A DNA stretch of 64,000 nt, from the sequence record NC_042307.1; one strand, written 5' to 3'. Shown in pieces: positions 37,265-41,088 of this stretch (its first letter is position 1; each line of letters starts with the position of its first letter). The DNA is from a phage. The translations under genes and the position numbers were made by a program. The notes under the pieces were generated by a model that saw only the letters and a list, made by a program, of their open reading frames with translations, was not told where the DNA came from and did no database searches.

Positions 37265-37707
37265 TTAAAATTAAACTAACTCATCCAGATTGCATGCCAA
37301 AGATTGGTTCTAATGATGCCGCAGGTATGGATCTGCGTGCATTCTTTGGTACTAACCTTGCAGCAGATTTACGTGCTATTGCACCAGGCAAATCCCTTAT
37401 GATTGACACCGGTGTCGCGGTGGAAATTCCGCGAGGTTGGTTTGGTTTGGTAGTTCCTCGCAGCTCTTTAGGTAAGCGTAAACTGATGATCGCAAATACC
37501 GCAGGAGTGATCGACTCAGACTACCGTGGTACTATTAAGATGAACCTGTTTAACTACGGTTCTGAAATGCAAACTCTGGAGAATTTCGAGAGACTTTGTC
37601 AGCTAGTGATACTACCATACTACTCAACACATCATTTTGAAATCGTTGACGAACTAGAGGAGACTGATCGTGGAGAAGGCGGCTTTGGAAGCTCAGGAAG
37701 TAAGTAA
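37261..37707 (+). CDS. dut: dUTPase
   Basis: 148 aa; dUTPase motifs AAGMDLRA, RSSLGKRKL, GVIDSDYRG, RGEGGFGSSG. Confidence 0.85.
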   Translation: MIKIKLTHPDCMPKIGSNDAAGMDLRAFFGTNLAADLRAIAPGKSLMIDTGVAVEIPRGWFGLVVPRSSLGKRKLMIANTAGVIDSDYRGTIKMNLFNYGSEMQTLENFERLCQLVILPYYSTHHFEIVDELEETDRGEGGFGSSGSK

Positions 37708-37957
37708 TTTTGTTGATCCTAATCAAATAGAGATTGATGCTAATCAACACCCTAATTTCTATGGTGTGATTGTAGCACCCCCCTACCCTTGATAAGGTAG
37801 TACTAAAAGTGGATATGTTTGGCAATATGGAGCAATGGAAAGAAGAAGGGTTTATTAAACTGTGTTCTTAGTCTCAAGATCCTACCCTTAGGGCTATGCT
37901 TGCCGTGTATAACTTAGGTATTATCGCAGGTAGTAAAGAGTAATAAAACCCCCCCCC

Positions 37958-37993
37958 CTCCAGTGGACAATCCACTGGGGTTTTCTCTTATTT
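37958..37993. terminator. terminator hairpin between the convergent early (plus) and late (minus) regions
   Basis: CCAGTGGA-CAA-TCCACTGG then TTTTCTCTTATTT on plus; preceded by a C10 tract at 37949-37958. Confidence 0.65.
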
Positions 37994-38155
37994 AGTAAGG
38001 AGTTGTTTTACTAATTCCTTTAGTTTAGTAATCTTTTGTACTGAGAGGGTGCAAAACGAACCTCTTGCATTTTGTGTTTTCATATGTACATAAGAACAGC
38101 CTAAGAATCAGCGAACTGTTAATACAGTAGAACATGCATTGCGTTGCTAGGATAA

Positions 38156-38665
38156 TCAAAATTCAGGCTTGTTTCGCAGCAATATTTTTTCAGTGGCAAG
38201 TTGCTCCTGGAATGCTGTACGCTGTTGATCAAACGACTGAGCAGAGATCGCGCCAGCGATGGTACTAGTGCTAGAGGTGATCGCAGTGTTCAGCTCTGCA
38301 AAACCCTGGACAGACGCCAATAGGTTTTGAGTATTCTATTGGGTAATAGCGTTCAGGTTCATTGCGCCTGTGTTAGCGATTGCCAGATTGGTTGCACCCT
38401 GACCCTGTACAACAGTTAGGCCCAGATTGTTCAGTCCGCTCTGAATGGATTCGATATCGCTTACCAGTGAAGTAGTCAGCATGTTTGCAGCAGTACCAGC
38501 AACGGAAACCGCGCCATCCACACCACCAACGCCAACACCACGACCACCCACACCATTACCTAACCAGGAATCAATCAGCGCACCACTAAAAGCAGCGATA
38601 CCAGGCATAGCACCGTCACCACCGAGACCGCCCATGTTGGTCGGTAAAAGAGTCCTGTCAGACAT
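38156..38665 (-). CDS. glycine/alanine-rich small protein; 109-codon ORF ends at in-frame TAG 38336-38338, frame stays open for 59 more codons to TGA 38156-38158
   Basis: ATG 38665 with AGGAG 8 nt upstream; downstream frame verified codon by codon. Confidence 0.5.
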
Positions 38666-38788
38666 AGTAAACACTCCTGAGAGTTGATTGTTAAACACAT
38701 GTAACACGCACATTACGAGTTAAGCATAGTGCATAACAAAAAGTTTACCTGGCATCTGATGTAAAGTTTTGTAAAGTTAAAAGTGATA

Positions 38789-38816
38789 AAAATACGCAGC
38801 CGAAGCCGCGTATTTT
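38789..38816 (-). terminator. hairpin terminator downstream of the tail-fibre gene
   Basis: 9-bp stem AAAATACGC/GCGTATTTT with GC-rich inner stem; U-rich 3' arm on minus strand. Confidence 0.5.
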
Positions 38817-38820
38817 AGGA

Positions 38821-41088
38821 TTAAGGAAGGTCTTGATTTGGAGCGGGGTCTTCAGGTAGAGTGGTTGGTTTATCTTCTAACAAAGACTCTAACTTACTGA
38901 CACGGGCGCTTAGCACCTGGATAGCAGCAAGCGCATCCAGTAACAGCACGTTAGTATCAAGCGAAAGAATTGTATTTCCCTCCTTGTCCTCGCTTGAGTG
39001 TGTGTATTCAGGGTCTATGGTTGCCGCTTGCTGTGCAATGATTCCACGACGTACCCGACGCTTTATATCATCTTTGAAGATAAACGTCACGAGCTCTAAC
39101 TGATTGATGTTGTTTAACGCACTCTTACCGTCCCATGGCTCAACCTGTTCTTTATAATCAATGTCGCTTGTAGGATCCAGCGTTACTCGCCCAATACGAG
39201 TACTATCAATCCATACATCGACTCCCGGATTTTCCCACGAGAAAGAATAGCTATTTGCTTGGAAATTACCACCAATACCTCTACGGCAAATGACACCTGC
39301 CGAGGGTAAGAGAGTTGTTAAGCGAGTAGCATCGTAGGTATCTAAAACAGATCGTGCAGTTCCATCGTAAAAATCTACACGAGCGGCGTACTGTGTCACC
39401 TGCCCCGCCCCATAACTCAACTCCATGTTACCGGACGCCTCTCCTGGCGCACCTGTGTTACGACTAATAATCAGGCTTCTAATATTAGACATTTCGCCAA
39501 AGTCGCTAAAAAGATACTCCCAGCTTTCACCGGACACTCGAGTAGGCTTAATGCAGGCATATGTGACGCTTCCTACTGTGTGGTTTACGTAAAAATCAGC
39601 AGTCGCCGTTCCGATACCATAGCCTTCTACAATTGATCGCCACGACCAACCCAAAATTTGACCTGTTGAGCCAGCAGGATAATAATGTTTAGTAGCAATC
39701 ATGGCGGTCGCAGTGTCACCACCTTTGGACAGCGCCCCGATGTTGTTGCGAGCACCCTCTGCGTCCCAAGCTCCAGTGCCGCCCTGTCCTACTCCTAAAG
39801 GTTTAAATACATTACTAGTATCGTCATAGACACCCCAAGACCCTGTATCCATTACAACTAAGTTGTAGCGGTTTGTCGGGTCATAAATGCGGGAACTATC
39901 AGCGCTCTGTTTAAGACGATCCACACTTAGGTTTATACGAGCCTGTACCTTGTCACTTAAGTCTGCAAGGTTCTGATCCTTTAACAAAGATATGCTCAAA
40001 GTTTGTTCAGCTTTGTTTGCTGCGGTCTCAGCTCGAGTTGCGGAACTGGATGCTGCTACGGCTTGTTCTCCTGCGGTTGTAGCGCTTCCAGCCGCGGCTG
40101 TAGCCTGTTCTGTAGCCGTTACTGCCTTTTGTCCAGCTAAGGTGGCAGCGTCTTCCGCAGCTTGTTTTAACGGGGTGATTTCAGCAATTGCGTTTGCCTT
40201 AGCTGTGTCAATTGCTCCTACTGCGTCCGTCTTAGCTGCTCCAATCTCTGTCGCCGCACCTTCTTTAATGGTCTGAGTGTCCGCTTTAAGCTGTTCAACA
40301 TCGGACTTAAGACCCTGTATTGTGGTCATAGCTTGCGTAGCTATGTTCGCGCTATCTGATGCACCTTGCTGAGCTAGCTTAGCAGCGTCTTCACTAGCTT
40401 TTGAGTTAATTTCGCTAGTCTTTGTATTAGTTTCTGAGTTTTTTGCTGCTAATGCTGATGTGGAGGCTTGTGCAGCGAATGCTTCTGCTTCATCCCTGAA
40501 TCCTTTGGAGTCAGAAGCAGAGGCAGCGGAATCAGCAGCATTAGTCTCGCTAGTTTTTGCTGCTGCTGCATATGCTGCTGCATTAGTCTCGCTAGTTTTT
40601 GCGTTAGTCTCACTAGTTTTTGCATTAGTCTCACTAGTTTTTGCTGCAGCTGATGATTCTAGAGCGTTAGTTTCACTAGTTTTTGCTGCAGCTGATGATT
40701 CTGCAGCTTTAGTAGCGGACGCAGCAGATTGAGAAGCAGAAATAGCAGAGGCATCGGCACTATCTTTAGATAAACCAGCTTGTCTCTCCGCTTCAGTAGC
40801 AGAAGTAGCAGATTGAGTTGCAGAAGCTTCTGAAGAGTTAGCATAATTTGCAGATAGGTTCTCAGAGTCCTTAGCATTTATTTCAGATTCTTTTGCTGCA
40901 ATTTCAGAATCTTTTGCAGCCGCAGCAGACTTAGCTGCTGCCTCAATAGAAGATACTAACTCACTTGCAGTAATAGAGCTAATAGAATTACCTAGAGTTA
41001 CTGTATATCTAGGAAACTTACTAGCAGTAGCTTTAGTATCGTCAATATTTAATATCTGTTGTACAATAATTTTAGTAGTTACTGACAT
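38821..41088 (-). CDS. ltf: L-shaped/side tail fibre protein with C-terminal intramolecular chaperone (S74-like) domain
   Basis: 755 aa; AKTSETN heptad repeats; C-terminal ..SDIDYKEQVEPWDGKSALNNINQLELV.. resembles autoproteolytic chaperone domains. Confidence 0.65.
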   Translation of the reverse strand: MSVTTKIIVQQILNIDDTKATASKFPRYTVTLGNSISSITASELVSSIEAAAKSAAAAKDSEIAAKESEINAKDSENLSANYANSSEASATQSATSATEAERQAGLSKDSADASAISASQSAASATKAAESSAAAKTSETNALESSAAAKTSETNAKTSETNAKTSETNAAAYAAAAKTSETNAADSAASASDSKGFRDEAEAFAAQASTSALAAKNSETNTKTSEINSKASEDAAKLAQQGASDSANIATQAMTTIQGLKSDVEQLKADTQTIKEGAATEIGAAKTDAVGAIDTAKANAIAEITPLKQAAEDAATLAGQKAVTATEQATAAAGSATTAGEQAVAASSSATRAETAANKAEQTLSISLLKDQNLADLSDKVQARINLSVDRLKQSADSSRIYDPTNRYNLVVMDTGSWGVYDDTSNVFKPLGVGQGGTGAWDAEGARNNIGALSKGGDTATAMIATKHYYPAGSTGQILGWSWRSIVEGYGIGTATADFYVNHTVGSVTYACIKPTRVSGESWEYLFSDFGEMSNIRSLIISRNTGAPGEASGNMELSYGAGQVTQYAARVDFYDGTARSVLDTYDATRLTTLLPSAGVICRRGIGGNFQANSYSFSWENPGVDVWIDSTRIGRVTLDPTSDIDYKEQVEPWDGKSALNNINQLELVTFIFKDDIKRRVRRGIIAQQAATIDPEYTHSSEDKEGNTILSLDTNVLLLDALAAIQVLSARVSKLESLLEDKPTTLPEDPAPNQDLP
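40538..40702. repeat. tandem 21-bp repeats (~5 copies, unit TTAGTCTC[G/A]CTAGTTTTTGC) plus a duplicated 40-bp unit inside the tail-fibre gene
   Basis: repeats read directly; encode AKTSETN repeats. Confidence 0.8.

Follow-up and report, generated by a model that had tools for sequence, protein, structure and literature searches.

A glycine-rich open reading frame behind the lateral tail-fibre gene of a T5-like Salmonella phage is very probably the 5′ fragment of a pseudogene, and a likely scar of a fibre-module swap

The window, by which we mean the whole 64,000 nt stretch of DNA that was analysed, comes from a T5-like Salmonella phage (Epseptimavirus, Demerecviridae). The region of 1 kb around the glycine-rich ORF studied here shares 98.9% identity with Salmonella phage S126, and 95 to 99% with about 40 further Epseptimavirus records. 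On the minus strand, one encounters successively a collar gene, the tail-fibre gene, a hairpin, a leader of 123 nt, the glycine-rich ORF, 343 nt that look non-coding, and a terminator. The latter (37993-37945) is common to this strand and to an early operon converging on the plus strand, which encodes the flap endonuclease D15 and a dUTPase. The fibre gene (38821..41088, minus strand) specifies a lateral, L-shaped tail fibre of 755 aa (the S126 and S113 records also have it as a tail fibre), and its product ends with a Peptidase_S74 intramolecular chaperone domain (Pfam PF13884, E 6e-10). A preliminary description of this DNA had placed the end of the fibre gene at 38821, in agreement with the 755-aa frame of the ORF list.

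Directly after the fibre stop codon, scanning and folding detected an intrinsic-terminator-like hairpin on the minus strand (38789..38816), made of a core stem ACGCGGC/GCUGCGU, a UUCG loop and a U-rich tail. Its 12 pairs give a dG of −16.3 kcal/mol, with a z score of −5.8 relative to shuffled sequences, and not a single change was found in its sequence in 12 out of 12 relatives. At the other end of the unit, a bidirectional intrinsic terminator, active in prediction on both strands (37945..37993, stem 37980-37961), was recognised by scan, by folding and by homology to T5: the site 37958-37993 is the homologue of one that the T5 annotation describes as an ‘efficient bidirectional rho-independent transcription terminator’. 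Between the stem and the T-run of the late strand lie 10 consecutive G (37958-37949), a run whose length differs among relatives. Both the hairpin 38816-38789 and the site 37958-37993 exceeded the threshold of the intrinsic-terminator scan, and count as predicted terminators. The preliminary description had proposed a hairpin behind the fibre gene, and a terminator at 37958-37993 closing both the late and the early regions; the two proposals are upheld. The two structures flank a unit that can be separated from the neighbouring operons.

The glycine-rich ORF lies on the minus strand at 38336..38665, and consists of 109 codons followed by TAG. Its true start, as indicated by homologues and by GenBank annotations, is the ATG at 38665 (MSDRTLL...), 124 nt past the hairpin, and not the ATG at 38713 retained in the mechanical ORF list. 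An AGGAG ribosome-binding site is present in the leader (38678-38674), so that the gene does have its own Shine-Dalgarno sequence, as had been suggested. The predicted product would include the peptide MSDRTLLPTNMGGLGGDGAMPGIAAF.... Searches of Pfam and NCBIfam with this ORF gave no significant match. The N-terminus looks glycine-zipper-like; a profile search of solved structures returned only a non-significant match to SlyB (E 0.74). A clear assignment was obtained with the PHROG 9288 family, whose proteins are about 235 aa long, and of which the ORF represents residues 1-109, that is, the first 45% of the gene. The phrog_9288 profile aligned with the 109-aa ORF alone over positions 1-101 of 234 (E 6e-18). 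When the pieces on either side of the stop were joined, the alignment ran unbroken across it, over positions 1-152 of 234 (E 1e-39).

The TAG (38336..38338) is a premature amber codon. A nucleotide alignment with five intact genes showed that the intact homologues have CAG at this place, which encodes an invariant Gln (...ITQQNTQNLL..., Q112 in the protein alignment). The frame remains open for 59 codons past the TAG. The homology carries on in this frame over 38205..38335 (minus strand), named ‘orf22b’ in S113 and equivalent to residues ∼111-153 of the intact proteins. A run of A (38185..38190, minus strand) contains one extra base compared to the intact genes, which shifts the frame immediately ahead of the invariant CCCETNLNIERQ motif. 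The stretch 37990..38204 (minus strand) is an older, heavily decayed 3′ remnant of the same gene, in the +1 frame and with stops at 38121-38119, 38103-38101 and 38082-38080. Alignments by tblastn with an intact protein gave the same picture: residues 1-153 matched 38665-38186 in one frame, with 57% identity (E 1e-58) and with the TAG opposite the invariant Gln, residues 147-201 matched 38205-38041, with a shift to the +1 frame and three stops (E 1e-10), and no recognisable counterpart of the last ∼35 residues was found in the window. The ∼80 nt at the 3′ end of the gene, which contain the PTPPTPPTGCC codons, are missing from this copy. An uninterrupted ORF of 205 to 260 aa bearing CCCETNLNIERQ, LICDLK and FKxPTPPTPP is therefore absent from the window, where a TAG at codon 110, a +1 frameshift, three stops and the loss of the tail are found in its place. 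It had been stated earlier that the glycine-rich gene ends before the terminator. The terminator is real, but the 343 nt gap that follows 38336 holds the broken rest of the gene. An ORF of 31 aa at 37988-38083 was dismissed, since it is part of the decayed remnant and indels break it in relatives.

Intact members of PHROG 9288 are 205 to 260 aa long. As gene A, they open a cassette of four genes, A-B-C-D; B (phrog_9157), C (phrog_8329) and D (phrog_7239) trail A in every intact locus examined. Such loci occur in Drexlerviridae (the T1-like PaulSarasin and the P0004 contig), in Queuovirinae (yong3, JenP1, Skure), in Edwardsiella phage eiAU and in a group of Yersinia phages, with PaulSarasin bas09_0032, the KurtStettler copy, JenP1 gp26, yong3 UPT52981 and eiAU gp08 as examples of gene A. 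The closest intact copy is P0004 (71% identity), which lies in a T1-like contig and is likewise trailed by B, C and D. Depositors have labelled gene A ‘putative sugar-binding protein’ (PaulSarasin bas09_0032) or ‘putative lateral tail fiber chaperone’ (KurtStettler copy); both labels are guesses. The cassette usually sits just downstream of the lateral tail-fibre gene, and a terminator hairpin precedes it in the four intact loci checked. PaulSarasin, JenP1, yong3 and Skure each have a hairpin and T-rich sequence at the equivalent place. The cassette of Yersinia phage vB_YenM_22 lies by itself, far from any fibre gene, between gene blocks of opposite orientation, and must therefore be an autonomous unit rather than a strict accessory of the fibre. 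Within the whole window, genes B, C and D were not found by tblastn with the proteins of three phages (best E 0.14).

In an alignment of 31 intact A proteins, conservation was highest over the C-terminal half and lowest in the glycine-rich N-terminus. The family motifs CCCETNLNIERQ, LICDLK and FKxPTPPTPP are exactly in the part that is destroyed in the window. Intact A has three parts, a glycine-rich and disordered N-terminus, a single long helix (as predicted) and a Cys-rich tail (PTPPTPPTGCC). The AlphaFold model, of low confidence (pLDDT 57), has a helix over residues 84-231 and disorder over residues 1-63 (pLDDT below 50), which suggests that intact A may be an oligomeric coiled coil. A Foldseek comparison of this model with viral structures was uninformative. 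Sequence searches of Pfam, NCBIfam and PDB with intact A, B and C, and of Pfam and NCBIfam with D, yielded nothing significant, and none of the four proteins has a strong hydrophobic segment. A profile search among 1.84 billion representatives retrieved only 109 clusters, nearly all of them stand-alone proteins of 200 to 290 aa or fragments. Our literature searches found no discussion of gene A or of the A-D cassette.

The leader of gene A (38666..38788, minus strand) is conserved as well. Aligning the leaders of eight phages from three families revealed shared elements, namely two TTTACA motifs, a −10-like TATRCT (TATGCT in the window, 38728-38723), and a palindrome GTAAY-N6-GTTAC (GTAAT-N6-GTTAC in the window, 38716-38701), followed on its 3′ side, in most copies, by TTTAACAA (38695-38688). 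In PaulSarasin, the palindrome reads GTAGC...GCTAC, a compensatory change that keeps the pairing. A weak promoter had been proposed in this leader, with TTGTTA at 38739-38734 and TAATGT at 38715-38710, 18 nt apart. These letters are present, but they match the consensus at 4/6 and 3/6 positions and fall below the threshold of the scan; the proposal is not confirmed. Over the region, the promoter scan detected 7 promoter-like sites, compared to 7.5 +/− 3.0 in shuffled sequences, which is no excess. The leader did not fold better than its shuffles (z +0.9), and no Rfam family matched 37800-38900.

Variation within the clade was then considered. Scans of IMG/VR with the 109-aa protein and with a pattern of 32 nt around the TAG found nothing, and relatives were drawn from the GenBank phage collection. 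The start codon and the Shine-Dalgarno sequence were intact in all relatives examined, and the TAG was kept in all 12 close relatives. The A-run counted 6, 7, 8 or 24 A among them, and KKP_3831 has an additional insertion of 1 nt just after the TAG, in the second segment. Only 1 site out of 123 nt varied in the leader among the 12 relatives; for hairpin and leader together, the ratio was 1/151, versus 50/676 (7.4%) in the body of the pseudogene (p = 5×10−4). Two explanations may equally be proposed for this conservation from the sequences compared: selection to preserve the fibre terminator and whatever regulatory signals are still relevant, or a recent sweep with the fibre allele.

The ORF itself showed no trace of constraint within the clade. 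The test drew on 12 genomes and a total of 19 changes, of which 15 were nonsynonymous and 4 synonymous (pN/pS 1.36), distributed 6/8/6 by codon position. These counts fit omega = 1, and omega = 0.2 was rejected (p = 10−4). Codons 58-110 varied little, at three of 159 sites, which speaks against a pseudogene, though the changes were nonsynonymous in all three cases. For comparison, the final 157 fibre codons of these genomes gave a pN/pS of 0.16, with 10 of the 14 variable sites at third positions. Two indels were found in the ORF, each a multiple of three; they fall in a GGT-rich stretch resembling triplet repeats, and are for this reason weak evidence against a pseudogene. We conclude, from these sequence comparisons, that the glycine-rich ORF is evolving neutrally within the clade. 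When codons 55-158 of the window were compared with intact genes, dN/dS was 0.05 to 0.21, with dS saturated. The gene was therefore under constraint during nearly all of its history, and lost it recently, shortly before its arrival or upon it.

The remains of gene A appear to be of two different ages. The GC content is 52% in the ORF, 50 to 52% in the young parts and 35% in the old remnant, for a window average of 39%. The young part (5′ and middle segments) is 67 to 74% identical at the nucleotide level to the intact genes L021 and L022, which are 70% identical to each other. For the old 3′ part, identity to the intact genes is 52 to 61%, compared to 61 to 77% among the intact genes themselves. 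About 80 Epseptimaviruses have a different fibre, of 983 aa; they match this region only from 38204 to the terminator, and lack 38205-38665. In three of them, 1-23, Seafire and BD13, the remnant begins right after the fibre stop, in DNA left mostly unannotated, and blastn comparison with the window shows one differing block, from ∼40320 to 38205, which takes in the distal part of the fibre gene with the hairpin behind it, the leader, and two thirds of gene A from its 5′ end. In Tequintavirus, all that HK6 possesses is the leader together with codons 1-45 of A, close to those of the Seuratvirus Skure, and T5 has no piece of the gene. The ORF is thus present in some T5-like phages and absent from other related ones, and its base composition is atypical. 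Such a comparison of the boundary across T5-like phages had been suggested beforehand: it did reveal a pattern of presence and absence. The gene is intact in other phage families.

Given that the old 3′ remnant is found in ∼80 Epseptimaviruses with another fibre, the ORF looks like the scar of a fibre-module swap. We conclude that it is very probably the still-open 5′ fragment of a pseudogene, a remnant of gene A presumably left by such an exchange; its 109-aa product, should there be one, would be without function. The following order of events would account for the locus. The old, AT-rich and stop-riddled 3′ remnant (38204-37990) would be the resident element, common to most Epseptimaviruses. 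The younger, GC-rich 5′ piece (38665-38205) would have arrived with the present fibre allele, its terminator and its leader, by a recombination swapping the fibre module, whose right-hand crossover probably fell inside gene A. This crossover would have joined a fresh 5′ part to the dead resident 3′ part, so that gene A was probably non-functional on arrival; the CAG to TAG mutation would then have been fixed, or was inherited. A donor was searched for: no relative of the distal half of the fibre above 60% identity was found outside the clade, identity dropping from at least 95% straight to below 60%, and the fibres adjoining intact A genes show no more than a distant relationship to that of the window. 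As no donor having both this exact fibre and an intact A was found, the swap is proposed here as the likely scenario.

Other readings of the same locus were weighed. A 109-aa protein might still be made from its own leader and have kept or gained a function, for instance a membrane-active or exclusion-type one. The intact start codon and Shine-Dalgarno sequence, the near-invariant leader, a frame that is open in 12/12 relatives with both indels in phase, the foreign GC content, the terminators on both sides and the glycine-zipper-like N-terminus (the SlyB match, E 0.74, being non-significant) all go in this direction. Yet the part that is kept is the least conserved region of the family, with residues 1-63 predicted to be disordered, all invariant family motifs are gone, changes are spread evenly over codon positions with a pN/pS of 1.36, the candidate promoter is below the scan threshold, and other T5-like phages manage without the piece. 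We consider a functional fragment improbable. Production of the full-length protein by recoding, through amber read-through or suppression at 38338-38336 and a programmed frameshift at the A-run, is hardly credible at all. The 59 codons open past the TAG with clear homology, the slippery-looking run of 6 A at the frameshift, and the in-frame TAG also present in the Skure copy could have evoked such a mechanism. They are countered by three more stops in the homologous frame after the A-run and by the missing conserved C-terminus, as well as by the free variation of the A-run from 6 to 24 and by the extra frameshift of one relative in the second segment. Moreover, there is no amber-suppressor tRNA in S126 or in the window: ARAGORN detected no tRNA in the window, and no CTA anticodon among the 28 tRNAs that it found elsewhere in the S126 genome. 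The suppressor-tRNA idea was rejected on the latter ground, and recoding as a whole because of the multiple downstream stops.

Alternatively, the protein may be dead and the non-coding parts at work, the hairpin terminating or attenuating late transcription, the leader binding a regulator or starting a transcript, and the remnant serving as a homology arm for fibre exchange. This is unlikely. In its favour, variable sites are rare in hairpin and leader (1/151, against 7.4% in the pseudogene body), the leader elements and the palindrome, with its compensatory change, are kept across three families, the variable fibre block has its right-hand limit within the remnant, at 38204, and the equivalent spacer of T5 has an annotated promoter. 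On the other hand, Rfam gave no match, the fold of the leader is no better than that of shuffled sequences, no promoter exceeded the scan threshold, the low diversity could result from a recent sweep with the fibre allele, and Epseptimaviruses with the 983-aa fibre have the remnant right after the stop, with no match to leader or hairpin. It is mainly because leader and hairpin are so conserved that we leave a slim chance to a fragment still expressed, and a small one to a non-coding role. A bolder proposal, which we regard as very doubtful, is that the leader and the 109-codon frame persist for a new purpose of the fragment or of its transcript, A-D being a self-regulated mobile module repeatedly imported with fibres. 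Compared to these possibilities, the pseudogene fragment remains our preferred reading, a decayed copy belonging to a known family and an ordinary outcome of mosaic phage evolution.

This bears on the idea, put forward in the preliminary description, of a self-contained unit of the moron type. Morons of temperate lambdoid phages are promoter-gene-terminator insertions between conserved genes. The present unit resembles them by its foreign base composition, its presence or absence among relatives, its flanking terminators and its position at a module boundary, and that part of the idea stands. It differs from them in lacking an intact gene, purifying selection and a verified promoter, and in that its host genome is that of a strictly lytic T5-like phage. 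An intact coding sequence under purifying selection, as expected of a moron, was not found, given the lesions and the within-clade pN/pS of 1.36. As to a promoter of its own, the hexamers at 4/6 and 3/6 are below threshold, and TATRCT and TTTACA are conserved across families. What finds no support is the working gene. The same description saw in this gene the best candidate for a function not yet described; a 5′ fragment ended by a nonsense codon, followed by a frameshift and stops, deprived of the most conserved half of the protein and evolving with a pN/pS above 1 does not support this view. Nor was the opposite case found, in which the gene would be the last cistron of the fibre operon and encode a virion component.

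The intact PHROG 9288 loci offer a close parallel. Homology extends over residues 1-153, and in decayed form to ∼201, the position behind the lateral tail-fibre gene is the same, and hairpin, leader and ribosome-binding site are similarly arranged. By contrast, the window copy carries the nonsense codon, the frameshift and the stops, and has neither the PTPPTPPTGCC tail nor B, C and D behind it. The junction between ltf and the terminator in T5 (T5.132, T5.133) occupies the same place in the genome, and is also alike in having a hairpin after the ltf stop, a spacer, the homologous bidirectional terminator and the converging early operon, but its spacer, 185 nt long, bears no trace of gene A, and T5.132 is intact in T5 whereas it is broken in the window.

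These results remove a false lead, since the annotated Epseptimavirus records examined list the ORF as a ‘hypothetical protein’, and could easily lead one to see in it a small accessory gene; pseudogene fragment would be the better annotation. They also provide what is likely a concrete and datable scar of lateral-tail-fibre exchange between T5-like phages and small siphoviruses, with a crossover inside a shared gene remnant, which may be useful for engineering host-range cassettes or for tracing them. An undescribed function might rather be held by the intact A-D cassette, outside the window, with its conserved leader and palindrome in several families. Finally, S113 and S126 carry this locus too, with an identical TAG and both ORFs, annotated as orf22a/orf22b in S113 and as orf21/orf22 in S126. 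In both records the two ORFs are ‘hypothetical’, the decayed third part is left out, and no pseudogene is marked; the a/b labelling nevertheless suggests that the annotators of S113 had seen a split gene.

The gene that meets the pseudogene from the other side of the bidirectional terminator is also broken. This plus-strand homologue of T5.132 (37670-37940), the final gene of the converging early operon, is intact in T5, 1-23 and Seafire, where it encodes 85 to 88 amino acids. In the window it is frameshifted at a poly-C run of variable length, at about 37776-37781, and further interrupted at 37868-37870 by a TAG codon in place of the GAG or GGG of relatives. S126, ende, beppo and bastian share this TAG. 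As the T5.132 homologue and the pseudogene are both disrupted, we concluded that the genes on either side of the bidirectional terminator are decaying.

Two homopolymer runs on the minus strand were compared among relatives. Within the pseudogene, the A-run at 38185-38190 has 6, 7, 8 or 24 bases, depending on the relative. The alleles with 8 A bring the downstream homologous frame back in register, yet stops remain in frame. The other run, 10 G at 37949-37958, separates the terminator stem from its T-run in the late direction, and its length varies among the closest relatives. In more distant relatives the stem is canonical and the T's follow directly, with no G-run between them. The G-run may weaken termination on the late strand, or may instead be an artefact of sequencing through a homopolymer.

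Gene A is also disrupted elsewhere. In the Escherichia phage Skure (Seuratvirus), an otherwise intact gene A has undergone a CAG to TAG change at the invariant QGQ motif (L007:5247-5249, in the Skure locus), and intact B, C and D genes lie downstream. Since this change is independent, gene A has been knocked out repeatedly, which suggests that, on laboratory hosts, the gene is dispensable or selected against. The Escherichia phage HK6 (Tequintavirus) keeps a different fragment, made of the leader and the first 45 codons of gene A (L019:3474-3647, in the HK6 locus), within a 3-kb unannotated stretch at the place where the fibre gene is expected. The HK6 leader is nearly identical to that of Skure.

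The genome of the near-identical phage S126 encodes, outside the region matching the window, 28 tRNAs, one of which has a TCA anticodon and is called as tRNA-SeC (L020:3384-3457, in the S126 locus). Judging from its anticodon, it would read UGA and is a possible opal suppressor; it has no bearing on the TAG of the pseudogene.

The leader upstream of the pseudogene (38666-38788, minus strand) shows near-zero variation within the clade, and is conserved in copies from Demerecviridae, Drexlerviridae and Queuovirinae. Its elements are two copies of TTTACA, a TATGCT, the palindrome GTAAT-N6-GTTAC (38716-38701) and TTTAACAA. In the T1-like phage PaulSarasin, the palindrome is changed to the compensatory pair GTAGC/GCTAC. 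The leader could be an operator, or a 5′-UTR hairpin, of the A-D cassette; an Rfam search over 37800-38900 gave no match to it.

By our own reading of the sequence, the B products have a His-rich N-terminus and an ExxE...ExxD pattern, and profile searches returned no match backing this reading. As for the location of the A-D cassette, it is placed after the tail genes in Edwardsiella phage eiAU (L025:4363-6217), and forms in Yersinia phage vB_YenM_22 (L026:4345-6049) a stand-alone plus-strand island flanked by blocks of minus-strand genes.
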